NCBI GenBank assembly: GCA_031290405.1
Contig: JAITNO010000036.1
Coordinates: forward strand, 1 to 15,190
Direction of reading: 5' to 3'
DNA: 15,190 nucleotides
Source: Spirochaetaceae bacterium
GTDB taxonomy: Bacteria > Spirochaetota > Spirochaetia > Treponematales > Breznakiellaceae
The position numbers were made by a program, and so were the translations under genes. The notes below the pieces were generated by a model. It did no database searches and was not told the origin of the DNA. It saw only the letters and a list, made by a program, of their open reading frames with translations. How positions within the stretch are numbered: the stretch's first letter is position 1; each line of letters opens with the position of its first letter. Below, piece after piece: positions 1-14,435 of this stretch.

Positions 1-3000
1 TCGGCCAGCTTCATCTGTTCGAGGGCTCGCTTGTATTCGACGGGGAGGACTTTGATGAAGCGGGGCTTTTCTTCGGCCCAGCGGGAAAGGATGCCCGAGG
101 CGTGGGCGGAGCCTGTCCAGTAGACGTGCTTGCGGATTGCTTCTTTGACGAAGGCCTCGTCTTCGCCGTCTTCGAGGCCGGAAAGGTCGACCATGCCGCT
201 GTTGAGGTAATACTCGAAGTTGCCGCGGTGGTCGAGGACGTAGGCGACGCCGCCCGACATCCCCGCGGCGAAGTTGCGCCCGACGTTGCCCAGGACGACG
301 AGGCGGCCGCCGGTCATGTATTCGGCGCAGTGGTCGCCTGAGCCTTCGACGACGGCGGTGGCGCCTGAGTTGCGGACGCAGAAGCGTTCGCCTGCGATGC
401 CGGCTATGTAGGCTTCGCCGGCGGTGGCGCCGTAGAGGATGGTGTTCCCGGCGATGATGTTTTCGCAGCTCTTGTATGTGGAGCCCGGCGGGGGGAAGAC
501 GGCGATGATGCCGCCGGACAGCCCTTTGCCGAGGTAGTCGTTTGCGTCGCCGGAGAGTCTGAAGGTGATGCCGCGGGCGAGGAAGGCGCCGAAGCTCTGT
601 CCGGCTGAGCCGCTCCAGTCGACGGTGATGCAGTTTTCGTGGAGGCCGTCGTCGCCGTAGCGGCGGGAGATTTCGTAGGAGAGCATGGTGCCGACGGCGC
701 GGTCGGTGTTGTGGATGGGGAGCTCGAGGCTTACGGCGCGTTTTTCGTCGAGGGCTTTGCGGCACTTTTCGATGAGGCAGCGGTCGAGCACGCGGTCGAT
801 GCGGTGGATCTGCTCCCCGGTGCAGTGGGTTTCGCCGCCGCCGGCGATGGAGTTTGGGCCTTCCGCCTTGAAGAGCAGAGCTGAGAGGTCGACGCCGGCT
901 GACTTAGGTTTTCCTGAGGGGCGCTGGACGAGGCAATCCGTCCGCCCGACGAGGTCGTCGAAGCGGCGGAAGCCGAGGGAGGCCATCGTCTCGCGGACTT
1001 CTTCGGCAAGGAAGCGGAAGAAGGTGACGAGGTGTTCGGGTTTGCCCTGGAAGCGGGCGCGGAGGACGGGGTCCTGCGTGGCGACGCCCATGGGGCAGGT
1101 GTTTTCGTGGCACTTTCGCATCATGACGCAGCCCAAGACGATGAGGGTTGAGGTGCCGAAGCCGAACTCTTCGGCGCCGAGGAGTCCGGCGATGACGATG
1201 TCGCGGCCGGTCTTGAGCTGCCCGTCGGTTTGCAGGCGGACGCGCCCCCGCAGGCCATTTTTGACGAGGGTCTGGTGGGTCTCACAGAGGCCGAGCTCCC
1301 AAGGGAGGCCGGCGTGGCGGATGCTGGACTGGGGGCTTGCCCCGGTGCCGCCGTCGTAGCCTGATATGAGGAGGTTGTCGGCGTGGGCTTTGACGACGCC
1401 GGCGGCGACGGTGCCGACGCCCGCCTCGGAGACGAGTTTGACGGAGATGCGCGCCCCCGGATTGGCGTTCTTCAGGTCGAATATGAGCTCGGCTAAGTCT
1501 TCGATGGAGTAGATGTCGTGGTGGGGCGGGGGGCTTATCAGCGTAACGCCGGGCGTGGAGTGCCGCGTCTTGCCGATCATCACGTCGACCTTGTGTCCGG
1601 GGAGCTGGCCGCCTTCGCCGGGCTTGGCGCCCTGCGCCATCTTGATCTGCAGCTCGATGCAGTGGGCGAGGTAGTTGCTCGTTACGCCGAAGCGGGCGGA
1701 GGCGACTTGTTTGATGGCGCTGCGCGTGGAGCTGCCGTCGCTCTTGGCGGGGAAGCGTTCAGGGTCTTCGCCGCCTTCGCCTGAGTTGCTGCGTCCGTGG
1801 ATGGAGTTCAGCGCGGAGGCGATGGTTTCGTGGGCTTCTTTGGAGATGGAGCCGAAGGACATGGCGCCGGTGGTGAAGCGCCGCATGATGTCTTCGACGG
1901 GTTCCACTTCGTCGATGGGGATTTTTTTACAGCAGCCCCCTTCACCTTCCTTGAAGTCGAGGAGGCCGCGGATGACGTGGGGGCGACGGTTGAGGGTGTT
2001 GCAGTGGTTGGTGAACTGTTTGAACGTGGCGTAGCAGGCGGTGCGGGCGGCCCACTGGAGCAGGTAGATTGCTTGCGGGTTCCACGCGTGGGCTTCGCCG
2101 CCCTGCCGCCAGCGGTACTGTCCGTCGCCTGAGAGCAGGGTGGTGGGGAGTATGTCGCCGGCGGCGCCTGGGGCGGCGCCTGAGGCGGCGCCTGAGGCGG
2201 CGCCTGAGGCGTTCCAGCCTGGGGCTGATTCGGGCGAGGCTTGGTAGGCGTCGTCCCCCTTGAGGGCGAGGCGGTAGCGGGACAGGGCTTCGGTTTCCAG
2301 CTCGGCGAAGCGCACACCTGCGATGCGGCTTGGGGTGCCGGCAAAGCAGGCGTCGATGACTTCGGGGCCGAGGCCGACGGCTTCGAAGATCTGGGCGCCT
2401 CGGTAGGAGCGCAGCGTGCTGGTGCCCATCTTTGCCATGACTTTGAGCATGGCCTTCTGCAAGCCTTTCAGATACTGATGTTCGGCCTCCGCGTAGCTTT
2501 TCGTCCGGCCGCCGTCGAAGCCGGCGCAGAGGGCGGCGATGGAGGACAGCGCGCCGTAGGGGGCCACCGCGTCGGCGCCGTAGCCAAAGAGGAGGGCGAA
2601 GTGCATGATCTCTCTTGGCTCGCAGGATTCGACGATGAGGGAGAGCTTCATACGGAGGCCGGCGCGGATGAGGGCGTGGTGGACGGCGCCTGCGGCGAGG
2701 AGGGCGGGGATGGCGCAGAGGGCGGCCTCGGGGCGGGCGGCGGCTCTGTCGGAGAGGACGAGGAGGCCGGCGCCGCCGGCGGCGGCTTCGAGGGCTCCGG
2801 CGACGAGGGCGTCGAGGGAGGCTTTGAGGCTGCCGGCGGGGCCGGCGGCGCCAAAGACGGCGTTCAATCTGCACAGGGTAAAGCCGTGTGCGGCGACGGC
2901 GGCGAGGGAGGCCATGTCGCCGTCGGTGAGTATGGGGTTTTTGACTTTGATGCGGCGGCAGTGGGCGGGGCTCTCGTCCATAAGGTTGAGCTGGGGGCCG

Positions 3001-4628
3001 AGGAAGCTCGTCAGGGTCATCACGAGGTCTTCGCGGATGGAGTCGATGGGCGGGTTCGTCACCTGGGCGAACAACTGCTTGAAGTAGGCGTAGGGCCGCT
3101 GCGGGATGTCGGAGAAGACGGCCAGCGGCGTGTCCGTCCCCATGGAGCCGGTGGGCTCCTGCCCCGTCTCCACCATCGGGATAAAGAGTCTGTCGCGGTC
3201 TTCCCGCGTATACCCCGCCTGCCTCTCAAGAAAGAGTATCTCCCTATCGTTTAGTGGCGGGGGCGCGCTCTCCGCTCCCCCCTCCTGGTCGAGCGTAATG
3301 ACATTCTCCTTCACCCACTGCGCGTAAGGCCGCGCCGTGGAGACCTGCTCCTTCACCTCGCCGTCGGGGATGATGCGCCCCTCTTCGAGGTCGACGAGGA
3401 GGAGCTTTCCGGGGAGGAGGCGCCCCTTGTATTCGATCTCTTCGGGGGCGAAGTCCTGGACGCCGGTTTCGGAGGCCATGACGATGAGGCCGCTTTTGGT
3501 GATGGTGTAGCGCGAGGGGCGCAGGCCGTTGCGGTCGAGGGTGCCGCCGACGTAGCGGCCGTCGCAGAAGACGATGGAGGCGGGCCCGTCCCAGGGCTCC
3601 ATCAGGCAGGCGTTGTATTCATAGAAGGCTTTGAGCTCGTCGCTGATGGGGTTCTTTTCGTTCCAGGCTTCGGGGATCATCATCATCAGCGCCTGGGGGA
3701 GGCTTTTGCCCGCGTGGACGAGGAACTCGAGCATATTGTCGAAGCTCGCCGAGTCGCTCTTGTCCGGCTCGACGACGGGGAGGATGCGGGCCAGGTCGGC
3801 GCCGAAGCGGGGGCTCTCGTAGAGGGCTTCGCGCGCGCGCGCCCAGAAGCGGTTGCCCTTGATCGTGTTGATTTCGCCGTTGTGGGCGATCATGCGGAAG
3901 GGCTGGGCCAGGTCCCACGAGGGGAACGTGTTCGTCGAGAAGCGGCTGTGCACGAGGGCGACCGCCGTCTCCACCTCGCCCTCGCCCAGTTCGGGGAAGC
4001 ATTCCCGCAGTTGCACAGGCATCAGCATCCCCTTGTAGACGATGATCTTTGACGAGAGGGACAGGATGTAGGGCTTTTCGCCGGCGCCGCCCGCGCCCAC
4101 CGCGCCCGAGGCCCCCGCGTTCACCGCACCCTCGAACCGCTTGCGGAGGATGTAGAGGCGCAGCTCCAGGGGCTGGTCGCTGGGGGCTTTCGGCACAAAG
4201 AACAGCTGCACCACCGCCGGTTGCGCCGCCCGCGCGATTGAGCCGATGCCGCCGTCGTTCACCGGCACCTCGCGCACGGGGAGCATATCAAGCCCCCCCT
4301 CGTCCGCAAGAGAAGCAAGGCAAGCCAGCGCACGCTCCCGCGCCACCCCCCCCTTAGGCGCAAAGAGCAGCCCCGTGCCGTAGCCCCCCGCGTCCGGCAG
4401 CGCCTCGCCTGCAAGCCCCTTGTAGAAGGCATGGGGAATCTGCAACAGCACCCCCGACCCGTCGCCCGTCTTGTTGTCCGCCCCCTCCGCGCCCCGGTGC
4501 GTCATCCGCTCCAGCACCGTCAGCGCGCGCTCCAGAATCCCGTGCCCCGCACGCCCGCGAATATCCGCGACAAACCCAATGCCGCACGCGTCATGCTCAT
4601 ATTCCCGACCGTATAAACCCTCGCACAT
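1..4628 (-). CDS. gltB: Glutamate synthase large subunit (GltB-type), single continuous ORF, with the C-terminal end beyond the window start
   Basis: The reverse-strand translation from the ATG at 4628..4626 reads MCEGLYGREYEHDACGIGFVADIRGRAGHGILERALTVLERMTHRGAEGADNKTGDGSGVLLQIPH. This is the Ntn-amidotransferase start, with the nucleophile Cys in the ...HDACGIGF motif. Mid-gene it reads RRFTTGAMSFGSISKEAHE...IKQVASARFGV...IQIKMAQGAKPGEGGQLPGHKV...LISPPPHHDIYSIEDLAELIFDLKNANPGARISVKLVSEAGVGTVAAGVVKAHAD...SGYDGGTGASPQSSIRHAGLPWELGL.ETHQTLV (FMN domain). Near position 1 it reads GATAGEAYIAGIAGERFCVRNSGATAVVEGSGDHCAEYMTGGRLVVLGNVGRNFAAGMSGG (the GXGXG C-terminal domain). The frame (top coordinate = 2 mod 3) has no stop in 4.6 kb. 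No listed minus-strand ORF lies in this frame, which fits an unterminated ORF that leaves the window. The start could instead be the ATG at 4634 (MIMCEG); GAGGA lies 5 nt upstream of the 4628 ATG. Confidence 0.9.
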   Translation of the reverse strand, partial: MCEGLYGREYEHDACGIGFVADIRGRAGHGILERALTVLERMTHRGAEGADNKTGDGSGVLLQIPHAFYKGLAGEALPDAGGYGTGLLFAPKGGVARERALACLASLADEGGLDMLPVREVPVNDGGIGSIARAAQPAVVQLFFVPKAPSDQPLELRLYILRKRFEGAVNAGASGAVGAGGAGEKPYILSLSSKIIVYKGMLMPVQLRECFPELGEGEVETAVALVHSRFSTNTFPSWDLAQPFRMIAHNGEINTIKGNRFWARAREALYESPRFGADLARILPVVEPDKSDSASFDNMLEFLVHAGKSLPQALMMMIPEAWNEKNPISDELKAFYEYNACLMEPWDGPASIVFCDGRYVGGTLDRNGLRPSRYTITKSGLIVMASETGVQDFAPEEIEYKGRLLPGKLLLVDLEEGRIIPDGEVKEQVSTARPYAQWVKENVITLDQEGGAESAPPPLNDREILFLERQAGYTREDRDRLFIPMVETGQEPTGSMGTDTPLAVFSDIPQRPYAYFKQLFAQVTNPPIDSIREDLVMTLTSFLGPQLNLMDESPAHCRRIKVKNPILTDGDMASLAAVAAHGFTLCRLNAVFGAAGPAGSLKASLDALVAGALEAAAGGAGLLVLSDRAAARPEAALCAIPALLAAGAVHHALIRAGLRMKLSLIVESCEPREIMHFALLFGYGADAVAPYGALSSIAALCAGFDGGRTKSYAEAEHQYLKGLQKAMLKVMAKMGTSTLRSYRGAQIFEAVGLGPEVIDACFAGTPSRIAGVRFAELETEALSRYRLALKGDDAYQASPESAPGWNASGAASGAASGAAPGAAGDILPTTLLSGDGQYRWRQGGEAHAWNPQAIYLLQWAARTACYATFKQFTNHCNTLNRRPHVIRGLLDFKEGEGGCCKKIPIDEVEPVEDIMRRFTTGAMSFGSISKEAHETIASALNSIHGRSNSGEGGEDPERFPAKSDGSSTRSAIKQVASARFGVTSNYLAHCIELQIKMAQGAKPGEGGQLPGHKVDVMIGKTRHSTPGVTLISPPPHHDIYSIEDLAELIFDLKNANPGARISVKLVSEAGVGTVAAGVVKAHADNLLISGYDGGTGASPQSSIRHAGLPWELGLCETHQTLVKNGLRGRVRLQTDGQLKTGRDIVIAGLLGAEEFGFGTSTLIVLGCVMMRKCHENTCPMGVATQDPVLRARFQGKPEHLVTFFRFLAEEVRETMASLGFRRFDDLVGRTDCLVQRPSGKPKSAGVDLSALLFKAEGPNSIAGGGETHCTGEQIHRIDRVLDRCLIEKCRKALDEKRAVSLELPIHNTDRAVGTMLSYEISRRYGDDGLHENCITVDWSGSAGQSFGAFLARGITFRLSGDANDYLGKGLSGGIIAVFPPPGSTYKSCENIIAGNTILYGATAGEAYIAGIAGERFCVRNSGATAVVEGSGDHCAEYMTGGRLVVLGNVGRNFAAGMSGGVAYVLDHRGNFEYYLNSGMVDLSGLEDGEDEAFVKEAIRKHVYWTGSAHASGILSRWAEEKPRFIKVLPVEYKRALEQMKLA
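2161..2212 (-). repeat. In-frame 12-bp tandem repeat (ggcggcgcctga x ~4.3) inside gltB, encoding a Gly/Ala/Ser linker (…ASGAASGAASGAAPGAAGD…)
   Basis: There are four direct, adjacent copies of ggcggcgcctg(a/g) plus a partial copy. In the gltB frame this translates to SGAA-SGAA-SGAA-PGAA, immediately upstream of the DGQYRWRQGGEAHAW...YLLQWAARTACYATFKQF segment. The unit length is a multiple of 3. In the other two minus frames it yields the PQAPPQAPP and RRRLRRRL strings seen in the ORF track. Confidence 0.8.
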
Positions 4629-4701
4629 AATCATCCTCACTTTTAAGTATCAGCATGATAGCCAAGCAAGACGATTTACGCAACATAGAAGAGGAGGAGA
4701 A

Positions 4702-4790
4702 GGGGGGCGTCCCCCCCTACGCGCGCACTGCGTTGCGCGCTACCCCCCCAGCGGGGGGGCGCCGCCCCCCCGCAACGCCCCCCCCGCTGG
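4702..4790. repeat. Cluster of G-run/C-run palindromes (GGGGGGcgtCCCCCCC; GCGCGCA-ctgcgt-TGCGCGC; ccagcGGGGGGGcgccgCCCCCCCgcaacgCCCCCCCCgctgg)
   Basis: Inverted repeats read directly: 4702-4717; 4721-4740; 4748-4790 with alternative pairings of the G7 run with either of two C7/C8 runs. The cluster sits in the divergent gltB/ftsH intergenic region. Confidence 0.8.
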
Positions 4791-4837
4791 AAGGCCTGAG
4801 GCCCCCCAGACCCCCCCATTAGCCGGGCGTCCTTCCC

Positions 4838-5134
4838 GGGGTGAAAGCCTCACTCCTATAGGGGTGAGGGTATCCCCCCTACTCGGGGTGAGGGTATCCC
4901 CCTACTAGGGGTGAGGGCATCCCCCCTATAGGGGTGAGGGTCTCCCCCCTACTAGGGGTGAGGGCATCCCCCCTATAGGGGTGAGTGTCTCCCCCTACTA
5001 GGGGTGAAAATCTCTGTCCTATAGGACAGATAATCTCTGTCCTATAGGACAGATGATCTATGTCCTAGTAGGACAGAGACTCTCTGCCCTAGTGCGCAGG
5101 ACTCTCTGCCCTCGTGCGCAGAGACTCTCTGCCC
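4838..5134. repeat. Tandem array 1: ~13 abutting units, period 22-26 bp (mean ~23.5), each an imperfect hairpin joined to the next through palindromic CC-TATA-GG / CC-TACTA-GG junctions. The unit sequence drifts progressively along the array.
   Basis: Units start at 4838, 4861, 4885, 4908, 4931, 4955, 4978, 5001, 5025, 5047, 5071, 5097, 5121. Example units in order: ggggtgagggtatcccccc-tactc; ggggtgagggcatcccccc-tata; ggggtgagtgtctccccc-tacta; ggggtgaaaatctctgtcc-tata; ggacagataatctctgtcc-tata; ggacagatgatctatgtcc-tagta; ggacagagactctctgccc-tagtgcgca; ggactctctgccc-tcgtgcgca; gagactctctgccc. There are no unique spacers, so it is not CRISPR-like. Confidence 0.85.
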
Positions 5135-5273
5135 AGAAGCGCCCCGCTCGGGGCGTGGCCCCGTAGGGCATTACAAAAAGCATCCCAAGGCTGGGGAGAG
5201 CAGCTTGCAACCTTTAAGCGCATTGCTCGGCGCCGCAGCGCCGTAGGCCGCGAGAAGCGCCCTCGGCGCCGCC

Positions 5274-5302
5274 TTGCATTTAAGTGTGCTTGGTCTTACA
5301 CT
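5274..5302 (+). promoter_or_regulatory. Candidate sigma70-type promoter for ftsH: -35 TTGCAT (5274-5279), 17-bp spacer, -10 TACACT (5297-5302). The ATG lies 7 nt downstream, implying a leaderless or near-leaderless transcript.
   Basis: Hexamers read directly. No Shine-Dalgarno fits between the -10 and the ATG at 5310. The ORF-track 'start' at 5274 is a TTG that coincides with the -35 element. Confidence 0.4.
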
Positions 5303-5309
5303 GGCGGTG

Positions 5310-7187
5310 ATGAACAACAACCTCCCCGGTGGGAACAATGCTGGACAAAAGGCGCCGCCGAGCCGCATGATACTCGTTTTTTTTCTGGCGCTTGGCGCTA
5401 TAGCGTTCTTTTATATGAGGTCGCACAACGCGGCGCTCGTCGCTCTTTCCTACAGCGACTTTCTGGCCCTGCTGAGCGACGACGCCAAAAAGCCGGCGGA
5501 GGTAACGATCGTCGACGATAAGAAGATCACCTGGCGGACGGGGGCGCCGGCGACCGCCTACGAAACGCTGATCCCCTACGGCGACCCCGGCCTCTTGCCG
5601 GCCCTCGAAGCGCACGGCATTCGGGTGAGCGGCGCGGAGAAGCAGGTGGGCTTCTTCGACGTTGTGCTCGAATTCCTTCCCTGGCTGATCGTGTGTTTCT
5701 TCATTATGACGATCTTCCGCAATATGCAGGCGAACGTCCCCGGCGGGCGGGGCTTTAACTTCGGCAAGAGCCGTGCGCGGCTTTACGAGGGCAAGGGAAA
5801 GAAGGTTGCCTTTGCCGATGTGGCAGGTCAGGTCGACGCGAAGGCTGAGCTTGAAGAGGTGGTGGCGTTCCTCAAGGATCCTGATAAGTTTACGAAGATG
5901 GGCGCGCGGATCCCTAAGGGCGTCCTGTTGGTGGGGATGCCGGGGACGGGCAAGACCTTGATGGCGCGCGCGGTCGCCGGCGAAGCGAATGTGGATTACT
6001 TCCATATTTCGGGTTCCGACTTTGTGGAGATGTTCGTGGGCGTCGGCGCGAGCCGCGTCCGCGATCTCTTTGAACAGGGGCGCAAGCACAGTCCGTGCAT
6101 CATCTTTATCGATGAGCTGGACGCGGTGGGGAGGACGCGCGGCGCGGGCTACGGCGGCGGCCACGACGAGCGGGAACAGACGCTCAACCAGATGCTTGTC
6201 GAAATGGACGGGTTCGACTCGAAGGATGGGGTGATCATCCTGGCGGCGACGAACCGCCCGGATGTGCTCGACCCGGCGCTGCTCCGCCCGGGGCGCTTCG
6301 ACCGTCAGGTTGTCGTCGCCATGCCGGACATTAACGAGCGCGAGGCTATCCTCAAACTCCACAGTAAAAAGGTGAAGACGGCGGTGGAGATAGACCTTTT
6401 CCGCATCGCGCGGGCGACGCCGGGGATGAGCGGCGCGGACATCGCCAACCTCGTGAACGAGGCGGCGCTGCTGGCCGCCCGCAAGGACAAGGCGTCCGTC
6501 GACATGGCCGACTTCGAGGAGGCGCGGGACAAAATCCTCATGGGCGTCGCCCGCAGCTCGCTTGCCATCTCGGACAAGGAGAGGCGCATGACGGCCGTCC
6601 ACGAGGCGGGGCACGCTCTGCTCCACTACTTCCTCCCCAACGCCGACCCGCTGCACAAGGTTACCATCATCCCCCACGGACGCGCGCTCGGCATGGCGAT
6701 CTCGCTGCCCGAACAGGACAGTTTTAGCCGCACGCGGGGCTGGATAGAAGACCGCATCTCGATTTGTTACGGGGGATGGCTGGCCGAAAAGCTCATCTAT
6801 GACGAAACGACGACCGGCACAAAGAACGACCTGGAACAGGCTACCGAAATGGCGCGGAACATGGTCTGCGAATGGGGCATGGCGGAGGATATTGGGCCCA
6901 TCACCTTCGGACAGGAGGAGGAGCCGATCTTTCTGGGCAAGGAGATTGCCCGCCACAAGGATTATTCTGAAGAGACGGCCCGCCGCATCGACGAGGCGAT
7001 CAAGCGCATCCTCGACCAGGCGCGTGCGCGCGCCGAAACGATACTCGACGCCAACCGGCTGATGCTCGAACGCCTGGCCGCCGCCCTCCTCGAGCGCGAA
7101 ACGCTCATCGACGCCGAAGTGCGCCGCCTCCTGGGCCTGCCGGCACGGGACGACGTTGGCGTCATTGCCGCGCCGGCTATGCTCTAG
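5310..7187 (+). CDS. ftsH: ATP-dependent zinc metalloprotease FtsH (AAA+ / M41 peptidase)
   Basis: First in-frame ATG of ORF 5274..7187 ([36 protein letters not shown]...). Two TM segments flank a ~70-aa periplasmic region. Walker A is GMPGTGKT, Walker B is [10 protein letters not shown], and the second region of homology is [20 protein letters not shown]. The zinc site is HEAGHAL, followed by [18 protein letters not shown]. The alignment to E. coli FtsH, recalled from memory, is unambiguous. Confidence 0.95.
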
Positions 7188-10177: not shown

Positions 10178-11197
10178 ATGAGAAAGTTTGCATCCTTGTG
10201 CGCCCTTGCAGCCGTCTTCGCCGGCCCACTCGCGTTTCCCGCCGCCGCGCAAGACGCGCCGTCCGTTTCGCTCTCCCTGAGGTATTACGATAAAAAAATC
10301 TATTACCTCCAGGACGAAAGCCCCATCCGCGTTCAGATCGCCGTCTCCAACAATTCGGCCAAGCTCTATCATTTTAGGCTGGCCGACGAACGCGCCTTTT
10401 CCATCGACGTCGACGTAAAGACGCTCGCCAACCGCGCCGTCGAGCCCTCCGAAGTCGTCAAGCGCAAGCGGGCGTCGGCCGGGAGGGTCTTCTTCCGCGA
10501 CATTGCCATCGAGGCAGGCGAATCCTTTTCGTTCGTCGAAAACCTGCGCGACTATGCAAACATCAGCGCGGCAGGCGATTACATCGTTCAGCTCCGCCTC
10601 CACCCCGAGCTCTTGGACGGCTCAGGCTTAGGCAGGCAGAACACCCTGGCAGGCGGCGCAGAGGCGCAGGGAAGCGGGGCCTCCATCCTCCTTTCCAACA
10701 GACTCCCCCTCCACATCAAAGCCACGCCGCTTATCGGCGACGACGGCCTCCCCCTGGCCCTCGACGTGGAGACCAACGCCGTCATCGTTCGCGAAAAGCT
10801 CCCCCCCGACCAGGTGATAGATTGGACGCTTGGCGCGCGGCAGAAAACGCAGTGGGAAAAGTTCTTCCTTTACCTTGATGTGGAAAAGATGATCGTCCGC
10901 GACGGCGCGCGGCAGCGGCAATGGCGGGGAGAGTCCGAAGAGGGCAGGCAGAGGATGCTCGCCGATTATCGCGGCGAACTCCAAAAGTCCACCATTGACG
11001 GCGACGTCTCGTCCATCCCACTGGATTGGACAACCGAGCGGACAAGCTACAACCGCAACGAAGGAACCGTCGTCGTCCTTGAACGCTTCAAAACAGGCAA
11101 TTACATCGAGCGCAAACGCTTCACCTACTACCTTGAAAAAGAGGACGGCTACTGGCGCATCGTCGATTACGTCGTCGTCAACCTGGGAACGGAGTAG
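10178..11197 (+). CDS. Secreted hypothetical protein (N-terminal signal peptide MRKFASLCALAAVFAGPLAFPAAA|QD); function unknown
   Basis: ORF 10160..11197. The first ATG at 10178 gives a canonical n/h/c signal peptide; the TTG at 10160 would add only 6 aa. Normal composition; no family recognised. Its stop lies 6 bp before the DUF58 gene start. Confidence 0.65.
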   Translation: MRKFASLCALAAVFAGPLAFPAAAQDAPSVSLSLRYYDKKIYYLQDESPIRVQIAVSNNSAKLYHFRLADERAFSIDVDVKTLANRAVEPSEVVKRKRASAGRVFFRDIAIEAGESFSFVENLRDYANISAAGDYIVQLRLHPELLDGSGLGRQNTLAGGAEAQGSGASILLSNRLPLHIKATPLIGDDGLPLALDVETNAVIVREKLPPDQVIDWTLGARQKTQWEKFFLYLDVEKMIVRDGARQRQWRGESEEGRQRMLADYRGELQKSTIDGDVSSIPLDWTTERTSYNRNEGTVVVLERFKTGNYIERKRFTYYLEKEDGYWRIVDYVVVNLGTE

Positions 11198-12745: not shown

Positions 12746-12838
12746 GGGAAGGGCCCCCAGACCCACCCGCAGCCCAGCCCCCATCACCGGAGGAACGCCG
12801 ACACCCGACGCAAAGCGCGAAGACTTGACGTAAAAACG

Positions 12839-13153
12839 TTCGCCGCGACAAACAAACCATTCGCCGCGACAAACAAAACATTCGCCGCGACAAACAAAAC
12901 GTTCGTCGTGACGAACAAACCATTCGTCGCGACAAACAAAACGTTCGTCGTGACGAACAAACCATTCGTCGCGACAAACAAAACGTTCGTCGCGACAAAC
13001 AAAACGTTCGTCGTGACGAACAAAACGTTCGTCGTGACGAACAAAACGTTCGTCGCGACAAACAAAACGTTCGTCGCGACGAATAAAACGTTCGTCGCGA
13101 CGAATAAAACGTTCGTCGCGACAAACAAAACGTTCGTCGCGACGAATAAAATG
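12839..13153. repeat. Tandem array 2: 15 head-to-tail copies of an exact 21-bp unit (consensus TTCGTCGCGACAAACAAAACG), each carrying the 14-16-bp palindrome (G)TTCGTCGCGACGAA(C) or a single-arm variant of it
   Basis: 'ttcg' recurs at 12839, 12860, 12881, ... 13133, always 21 bp apart. There are three unit subtypes: A, ttcgtcgcgacaaacaaaacg (left arm perfect); B, ttcgtcgtgacgaacaaa(a/c)c(g/a) (right arm perfect); C, ttcgtcgcgacgaataaaa(c/t)g. Their order is A A A B A B A A B B A C C A C. The frame-preserving 7-aa ORF-track strings (TNKTFVA...; SRRTFC...) are artefacts of this array. Confidence 0.9.
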
Positions 13154-13464
13154 CGCTCGGCAGAGGGAAAAACGCCCTTTGTAGCTTGAAACGCGGTTGT
13201 TACGGCCTTAAACCGCCTTCGCAGCCGCAAAAGATTTTTACGATTGGAGCTGATTATGGACTGGGAACCCCGCGCCAGAGGCCGCGCCGGACCCCGCTCC
13301 GGAGGCAGCCCCGCAAAGACCCCCACGAGGGAGCCTGAGCCGCCCGCGACAGAGGCCGCGCCGGAGGCCAATGCGCGGGAAAGAATGAGCGATGAAGAGA
13401 GAACAGGGAGCGCTGCGAAAAGCTTTACCGCGAACGACAAACATATTTCGCGGCAGCCGCATCT

Positions 13465-13537
13465 TCCTTTGCTCTTTGCCCATGGCTCTTTGCTCTTTGC
13501 AAGCCCTCTTGACAAAAAACGCGATTTTGTCAAAAAT
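13465..13537 (+). promoter_or_regulatory. Candidate promoter/operator for the OMP gene: heptamer direct repeats (TCTTTGC x4-5) leading into -35 TTGACA (13509-13514), which sits inside a perfect 9-7-9 inverted repeat TTGACAAAA-aacgcga-TTTTGTCAA (13509-13533); -10-like AAAAAT (13532-13537)
   Basis: Read directly. tttgctctttgc occurs at 13468-13479 and again at 13489-13500 (21 bp apart). The IR arms are exact reverse complements. The -35 to -10 spacing is 17 bp. The -10 is a weak match. Confidence 0.45.
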
Positions 13538-13588
13538 AGCCAATCGGTCACGAACACCGCGACCGAAACATCTTATAAGGAGATATTT

Positions 13589-14407: not shown

Positions 14408-14435
14408 ACGCGCGGGCGGGGGGGGGCAAACACGA

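Follow-up and report, generated by a model that had tools for sequence, protein, structure and literature searches.

We propose that 13 head-to-tail near-palindromic units lying between the divergent gltB (glutamate synthase large subunit) and ftsH genes of a Spirochaetaceae metagenome-assembled genome (MAG) form a lineage-specific, non-coding minisatellite, built from a short self-complementary hairpin unit, grown by slippage and kept palindromic by hairpin-templated mutation, with an architecture resembling that of repetitive extragenic palindromic (REP) sequences and bacterial interspersed mosaic elements (BIMEs). We hold this reading at a probability of roughly 55%. The stretch of DNA analyzed, hereafter the window, is 15,190 bp long, is the entire contig, and comes from one metagenome assembly. 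A sequence-only reading of the window had already described a 13-unit tandem array in an unusually long divergent spacer, and both descriptions were confirmed, the array by Tandem Repeats Finder together with a unit parse (mean period 23.3 bp), and the spacer, 681 bp long (4629–5309), by Pfam identification of the two genes that bound it (Table 1). Among the roles which that reading had offered for the array, the minisatellite option proved essentially right.

Unit structure, sequence gradient and dyad symmetry

Tandem Repeats Finder reported overlapping arrays across the element, with periods of 22–24, 47 and 70 bp and scores of 75–253. Unit borders were set by a hand parse, which gave 13 units of 17–25 bp starting at positions 4838, 4861, 4885, 4908, 4931, 4955, 4978, 5001, 5024, 5047, 5071, 5096 and 5118. 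Outside the array, none of the three unit types found a match in the window at ≤3 mismatches, and dinucleotide shuffles of the window gave an expectation of 0.00–0.07 matches; the array is real, and a chance feature is excluded. Its period of 23–24 bp is no multiple of three, and TAG stops occur in the junctions.

The identity of units falls steadily with their separation: neighbours average 0.82, and units 12 places apart 0.44. The gradient described earlier therefore stands as a trend, but its strict monotony fails, since unit 1 is nearer to unit 8 (identity 0.83) than to unit 2 (only 0.67). Because of this affinity to unit 8, unit 1 is probably an old unit that was parted from unit 8 by later expansion. 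Units 2–7 are closely alike, units 4 and 6 being identical, and the alternation of two junction types within this block results in a higher-order period of 47 bp, at which Tandem Repeats Finder counted 92% matches compared with 86% at period 23. The block looks like a later burst of one- and two-unit duplications within an older array represented by unit 1 and by units 8, 9 and onward. Unit 8 is a hybrid, its left arm being of the old type and its right arm of the new one and exactly complementary to the left arm of unit 9. Across the single array, the half-site shifts from GGGGTGA through GGACAGA to GCAGAGA.

Each 23-bp unit is nearly palindromic (for example, TAGGACAGATA-A-TCTCTGTCCTA), and consequently the junctions are palindromic too. 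Of the 12 junctions, only about nine belong to the CCTATAGG or CCTA(C/G)TAGG type; the final two are CCCTAGTGCGCAG and CCCTCGTGCGCAG, so that the claim of two palindromic types at every junction was overstated. Pairing and covariation were counted on a hand-set alignment of the 13 units. In the true register 80.6% of arm cells pair, compared with 42–56% when the partner column is slid by 1–3, which bears out the description of the units as hairpins. Both sides have changed in 6 of 11 pairs, and the covariation score of 0.226 was reached in none of 500 shuffles (0.137 ± 0.029), a comparison that overstates the significance because the units are related by descent. Three adjacent positions are mirrored in both arms in the change from GGGGTGA/TCCCCCC to GGACAGA/TCTGTCC. 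A palindrome scan placed centres at intervals of 11.5–12 bp from 4847 to 5125, with arms of 7–11 bp, and the predicted capacity for cruciforms in several registers is thus sound as a description. The best candidate for cruciform extrusion is the 41-bp palindrome listed in Table 1.

As a single strand, the array folds into much more stable structures than its shuffles (z of −9.0 as DNA, and of −9.8 and −9.5 as RNA on the two strands), with no difference in folding energy between strands. These values bear on whether the array is a transcribed structured RNA, such as a leader with several hairpins, a small RNA or a sponge for proteins, an explanation that we regard as quite improbable. As RNA, the array is predicted to fold very stably (−180 kcal/mol, z about −9.8), the stems co-vary, and a neighbouring conserved element, described below, has UNCG-type loops. 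Yet both strands fold equally, the mismatches show no G-U strand signature, nothing promoter-like was detected by a scan of the DNA upstream of the array, and the array is not conserved in relatives. No Rfam 15 family matched at its gathering threshold; permissive matches were limited to generic microRNA-like hairpins scoring 11–31 bits against gathering thresholds of 37–106, the best of them reaching 31 bits against a threshold of 98.

The earlier proposal that the G-rich half supplies runs for a G-quadruplex on both strands found no support: no canonical motif (loops up to 12 nucleotides, nt) occurs on either strand, and the G-quadruplex-like patterns present have long loops (≥15 nt) and lie almost only on the plus strand. 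Homopolymeric G or C runs of 6–9 nt number 28 in the window, 12 of them in the gltB/ftsH spacer. Runs are found at 4702–4968 of the window (also at 14418), and relatives have runs of 12–13 nt (at 5186, 10374 and 10745 of locus L003 and at 1456 of locus L001; L numbers denote the loci fetched for comparison). Runs of this kind slip readily and could be phase-variable, and short-read assemblies are prone to errors in them.

Table 1 Coordinates of the array, its parts and neighbouring features in the window
Feature	Position	Strand	Description and evidence
Whole array	4838..5134		13 head-to-tail near-palindromes of ~23 bp, form TAGG-arm-centre-arm-CCTA; Tandem Repeats Finder, identity matrix, dyad counts
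Unit 1	4838..4860		GGGGTGAAAGCCTCACTCC + TATA; nearest to unit 8
Units 2–7, G/C-run subfamily	4861..5000		GGGGTGAGGG(T/C)(A/C)TCCCCCC; TATA and TACTA junctions alternate
Units 8–11, subfamily GGACAGA..TCTGTCC	5001..5095		Sequence, identity matrix, dyad counts
Units 12–13, subfamily GCAGAGA-C-TCTCTGC	5096..5134		TGC/GTGC linkers
Longest near-perfect palindrome of the array, 41 bp	5013..5053		Arms 20 bp, centre 1 bp, 1 mismatch
Left-flank element, GC-rich hairpin train	4697..4787	+	Alignment to L029, five-way alignment, covariance model, dyad centres
Right-flank element, one copy of a dispersed sequence	5158..5204	+	GCCCCGTAGGGC..CCCAAGGCTGGGGAGAGCAGC; alignment to L001
Sibling array, 15 units of exactly 21 bp	12833..13151		AAAACGTTCGTCGCGACGAAC with palindrome TTCGTCGCGACGAA; Tandem Repeats Finder score 470
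gltB (glutamate synthase large subunit)	3..4628	-	Pfam GATase_2, Glu_syn_central, Glu_synthase, GXGXG
ftsH	5310..7187	+	Pfam AAA, AAA_lid_3, Peptidase_M41

Sibling arrays, relatives and flanking elements

Arrays of the same build occur elsewhere. The sibling array of the window is bounded by rluA and by a downstream gene of the same strand, is unrelated in sequence to the gltB/ftsH array, and shows the same kind of decay of unit identity with distance, from 0.86 to 0.70. It contains phased A-tracts. The array keeps open a spurious reading frame (12784–13557, minus strand, 257 aa, with 'NVLFVAT' heptads), for which 5.8 billion proteins held no homologue and which led to no further arrays. Another array, in locus L003 (11703–11843), consists of about six 23-bp units of the form GGGGTC-GTTATTA-GACCCC-GACA and lies between co-directional genes, an SNase-domain gene and mntP. 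It shares with the gltB/ftsH array a common architecture (stem 6–7, loop 5–7, linker 4–5, period 23), while the sequences differ. One of the three arrays has a divergent gene context and two have co-directional ones, indicating that divergent promoters are not required; the repetition of one architecture in different sequences points to a recurrent process rather than to a single binding motif.

This comparison weighs on the possibility that the array is a set of sites for a dimeric DNA-binding protein, be it a regulator of gltB or ftsH, a cooperative array akin to iterons or centromeres, or a decoy that draws a phage protein recognising the related phage hairpin. The almost loop-free near-perfect palindromes (GCAGAGA-C-TCTCTGC) are typical of dimer operators rather than of hairpins, the array lies upstream of both gltB and ftsH, and periods of 21–23 bp approximate both two turns of the helix and the spacing of classical iterons. 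In two junctions the sequence CTGT-N8-ACAG has the same spacing as the gamma-proteobacterial LexA box. We nevertheless consider this explanation improbable: the half-site is not conserved along the array but falls into three types, the sibling arrays are unrelated in sequence, the 15-kb contig holds no regulator, rep or par gene, and the array is missing upstream of gltB and ftsH in all relatives fetched. The regulator site set offered by the sequence-only reading is unlikely, as the half-site changes within the array and Pfam detected no gene for a DNA-binding protein in the window, and its insulator or other regulatory function is left without comparative support.

Known tandem binding arrays invite the same comparison. 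The 22-bp iterons of R6K, sopC of F and parC of R1 repeat in tandem at roughly every second turn of the helix, and each sopC unit contains an inverted repeat. The gltB/ftsH array shares that period with plasmid iterons and partition centromeres but has neither rep nor par genes beside it, an AT-rich or DnaA-box region is likewise absent, and its unit sequence is not conserved along the array. Three divergent unit types, flanks of 58–71% GC and the neighbours gltB and ftsH speak against an iteron-type origin, as does the lack of par genes in the window against a partition centromere; judged by its housekeeping genes, the setting looks chromosomal.

By FtsH, termite-gut-type Treponema and Termitinemataceae come next in relatedness. 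No relative fetched has the array, the long spacer or the gltB–ftsH adjacency, the closest being 86% identical in FtsH and 76% in GltB. In the more distant relatives L024 and L025, ftsH directly follows tilS, and tilS–ftsH is the ancestral arrangement. In the closest, L001 (FtsH 86%), ftsH starts 4 bp after a gene of 465 aa and the locus is not syntenic; in L002, L003 (FtsH identity 75%), L023 and L035 it has other neighbours and short spacers. The nearest gltB genes, those of L027, L034 and L028 (76%, 73% and 71% identity), have no array upstream, with a 174-bp spacer behind a co-directional gene in L027 and with gltB lying within ~330 bp of the contig end, which limits the upstream view, in L028 and L034. 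Because the ftsH and gltB loci of relatives lack them, the adjacency, the long spacer and the array appear to be lineage-specific. The rearrangement that placed ftsH next to gltB gave rise to the spacer, which is filled with dispersed repeat elements. The sequence-only reading had named absence from close relatives, coupled with unchanged gltB and ftsH expression, as what would speak against its proposals, and the first half of that pairing, absence, is what the comparison returned.

Two other features of the relatives' contigs were seen in passing. In L001, a large inverted repeat with three 10-bp direct repeats per arm (GTCCACAGAT ATACACAGAT TAACACAGAT ... ATCTGTGTCT ATCTGTGTCC ATCTGTGGAC; 10520–10600) sits in a 790-bp region downstream of ftsH. 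Positions 10997–18942 of L027 and 8561–15084 of L028 hold a likely diversity-generating retroelement neighbourhood, with bAvd/23S_rRNA_IVP genes beside FGE-sulfatase and Big_2 proteins, along with a BREX-like defence cluster (PglZ, BrxL); both are unrelated to the array.

The spacer carries a dispersed element on each side of the array. The left one is a train of GC-rich hairpins in the order G6-loop-C6, GCGCGCA-loop-TGCGCGC and CCCCCCAGCGGGGGGG..CCCCCCCGCAACGCCCCCC, its dyad centres being spaced by 21, 21 and 10.5 bp. About 90 nt of it align with phage locus L029 at a score of 76 (shuffled, 19.4 ± 3.0; 0/1000); L029 and L032 are loci of an IMG/VR phage contig with 41–43% GC. Copies lie at 4697–4787 of the window, L029 4946–5037, L032 99–141, L031 2225–2371 and L001 44–84, so that the core is present in a second, related phage contig (L031, as the 3' core) and in the closest bacterial relative as well. 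This core has the form CCCCCC(T)CAGCGGGGGG-loop-CCCCCCGCAACGCCCCCC; ahead of it stand one to three hairpins whose sequence varies among copies. One stem position has changed on both sides between the aligned copies of the window and of the IMG/VR contig (GCGCGCAC/TTGCGCGC versus GGGCGCAC/TTGCGCCC), and the UNCG-type loop reads UGCG in the window and UUCG in the phage copies. Between the two related phage contigs the element is ~92% identical, compared with 72–78% for the flanking coding DNA. The phage contigs that carry it encode capsid, terminase, D5-type primase and HTH_17 proteins. When 201 kb of fetched loci were searched with a covariance model of the core, only the five copies already listed came up. 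No Rfam family matched the element, which may serve as an att site, mark a phage origin or regulatory region, or act as an RNA.

The first hairpin of the left element, GGGGGGA-AGTA-TCCCCCC in the phages and GGGGGG-TAT-CCCCCC in L001, resembles units 2–7 (GGGGTGA-GGGTA-TCCCCCC), which suggests that these units may be amplified copies of it. Phage copies of the module are not followed by an array. On the right, the flanking sequence (GCCCCGTAGGGC..CCCAAGGCTGGGGARAGCAGC) is present once in the window and aligns at a score of 54 (shuffled, 16.5 ± 2.6; 0/1000) with L001, where it forms an 80-bp × 3.9 tandem array (3318–3625). That L001 array ends in a terminator-like hairpin with A- and T-runs on its sides. 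A BLAST search of the whole gltB/ftsH spacer against GenBank phages and plasmids returned no match. A 'leader' apparently shared by both arrays of the window (GGCCCCC(C)AGACCC(C/A)CCC, at 4800 and 12751) was discarded, as 50 of 1000 shuffles scored as high and other windows of the contig scored higher.

Under a broader proposal, the array, the left hairpin train and the sibling arrays would belong to a single undescribed system of termite-gut-type spirochetes, a family of hairpin modules, mobile or linked to phages, from which palindromic arrays arise and expand by themselves. Such arrays might be kept as a decoy for a hairpin-binding phage protein or as a cruciform 'supercoil sink' between genes. 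We consider this unlikely.

Origin of the array and its likeness to known repeats

We favour a mutational process over a binding or RNA function because the architecture recurs with other sequences and in other gene contexts, the array is not conserved, and it combines a higher-order period with identity decay. The array would have grown one or two units at a time, through slippage during replication or through unequal exchange, and such growth would leave neighbours alike and distant units different, which is the gradient observed. A mutation in one arm may be copied to the other by hairpin-templated template switching; since a template switch mirrors an arm change in a single event, the mirrored three-base changes would need no selection. 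Units still able to fold would be those that go on slipping, and palindromicity could thereby be kept by template switching and fold-dependent slipping without any host selection. Hairpins have been described in one report as being created and maintained by template switching (PMC8794818).

Several observations weigh against this explanation. Copy-number variation, the hallmark of a minisatellite, is so far a prediction, all the sequence coming from one metagenome assembly. A consistent T/C mismatch in the arms of units 2–7 has been left 'uncorrected', so template-switch homogenisation is not pervasive. Dyad symmetry maintained across three sequence types is also the product expected from selection on structure, and the shared descent of the units inflates the shuffle statistics cited for it. 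The resemblance between units 2–7 and the flanking hairpin comes down to ~12 low-complexity bases.

By architecture, the closest described objects are REP sequences and their clusters. REPs are palindromes of 20–40 bp with stems of 6–9 bp, whose subfamilies differ by complementary stem changes and whose large clusters frequently repeat single units or dimers in tandem (PMC3733652). Like REPs and BIMEs, including the GTAG superfamily and the 22–25 bp SMAG repeats of Stenotrophomonas (PMC3733652), the array consists of short intergenic imperfect palindromes with small loops, has subfamilies with complementary stem changes in a tandem cluster, and carries a GTAG-like tag by some stems. Its units fall within the 20–40 bp imperfect palindromes able to form a stem-loop that define a REP. 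It differs in that its units abut head to tail, where REP units alternate with linkers, and in that the contig carries neither further copies, of the hundreds expected of REPs, nor a gene for the associated REP-associated tyrosine transposase (RAYT, of the HUH-Y1 type) flanked by the repeats.

We therefore weighed whether the array is a true REP/BIME cluster, that is, a local pile-up by insertion or duplication of non-autonomous mobile hairpins dispersed genome-wide and multiplied by a RAYT or TIRYT encoded elsewhere. The 23-bp imperfect palindromes, with stems of 7–9 bp and short loops, lie inside the published REP range, and tandemly reiterated REP clusters are documented (PMC3733652). GTAG adjoins the stem at 5 of 12 junctions. 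Units 1–8 open with GGGGTGA, and GGGGTGAG of units 2–7 fits the GGGGWSAS motif reported in inverted repeats flanking RAYT-like genes (PMC3733652). Single hairpins like units 2–7 occur in L001 (57–71; GGGGGGTATCCCCCC) and in phage contigs (GGGGGGA-AGTA-TCCCCCC). On the other hand, the GTAG tag changes strand along the array (four on the minus strand, one on the plus) and is missing at seven junctions, which read ATAG or GTGC; head-to-tail REP arrangements are described as rare in most genomes, and a REP survey lists CGTC repeats only for Spirochaetes, GTAG repeats not being reported there (PMC3733652). Pfam found no transposase gene in the window. The sequence-only reading had called for a search for dispersed copies of the unit: none of the unit types has a copy outside the array in the 15-kb contig, and a unit pattern scanned through 596 Gb of genomes, through the metagenome collection and through viral contigs, which did not include the source genome and so weigh lightly, gave isolated chance matches in unrelated taxa or none; other unit patterns scanned against viral contigs gave nothing. 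A true REP cluster is thus doubtful, though it is the alternative that we take most seriously.

Other repeat classes share part of the design. With bacterial minisatellites (variable-number tandem repeats, VNTRs) the array has in common a head-to-tail, non-coding unit within the range of 10–100 bp, a higher-order period and neighbours that are more alike than distant units, and it differs from them in that the units are themselves palindromes with co-varying arms. Pneumococcal BOX elements consist of boxA, boxB repeated n times and boxC, the central hairpin module varying in tandem copy number. The gltB/ftsH array likewise has a conserved element on each side, but there is no sequence relation, and the two flanking modules are seen together around no other array. 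As in CRISPR loci, short, partly palindromic repeats form a regular array; unlike them, the array has linkers of 0–6 bp in place of spacers, and no cas genes are present in the window. A replication origin, integron attC sites, Xer/dif sites and terminator arrays were dropped on unit size, the lack of T-runs or the lack of partner genes.

There is, finally, a very small chance that the array was produced by the metagenome assembler, the sole source of the sequence being a single MAG contig. Assemblers do not invent ordered unit differences of the kind seen here, similar arrays occur in an independent assembly (L003), and the flanks run on into intact genes. The risk of collapse is confined to the copy number of the near-identical units 2–7.

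Flanking genes and implications

The gltB gene starts at 4628 and is truncated by the left contig end. A promoter scan found no acceptable sigma-70-like site in the gltB/ftsH spacer. By eye, weak candidates (each with 3 of 6 positions of the −35 hexamer) are TTGCGT-17-TATCAT for gltB (4683–4655, minus strand) and TTGCAT-17-TACACT for ftsH (5274–5302). The latter, the sole sigma-70-like candidate for ftsH, stops 7 bp 5' of the annotated ATG, and no Shine-Dalgarno sequence is visible in 5274–5310; the ftsH mRNA may be leaderless, or the real start may lie downstream. The gene call of the Joint Genome Institute (JGI) for ftsH is 35 codons shorter. About 100 bp upstream of ftsH, positions 5193–5210 (GGGGAGAGCAGCTTGCA) show the GG-N10-GC spacing of a sigma-54 promoter with a TTGCA −12 element, a match that is probably due to chance because the homologous L001 copies lack TTGCA.

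No sequence-specific regulatory role of the array was seen. Any effect on gltB and ftsH would be passive, through extra promoter spacing and through hairpin or cruciform extrusion that would absorb negative supercoils between the divergent genes; the latter is physically plausible, and a passive structural or insulating effect is conceivable.

If the minisatellite reading holds, the array would be ordinary repeat DNA, of value chiefly as a hypervariable marker of strains and as a caution that this intergenic region is liable to assembly collapse. The 90-nt GC-rich left-flank element, common to phages and bacterial chromosomes, is a more promising object than the array itself. High-GC termite-gut-type spirochetes appear to hold several independent arrays of 21–23 bp palindromic units, a repeat class undescribed for this group in the searchable literature, and the gltB/ftsH array would offer a natural case of hairpin arms co-varying along a chain of duplicates, a template-switch pattern that is easily taken for structural selection.

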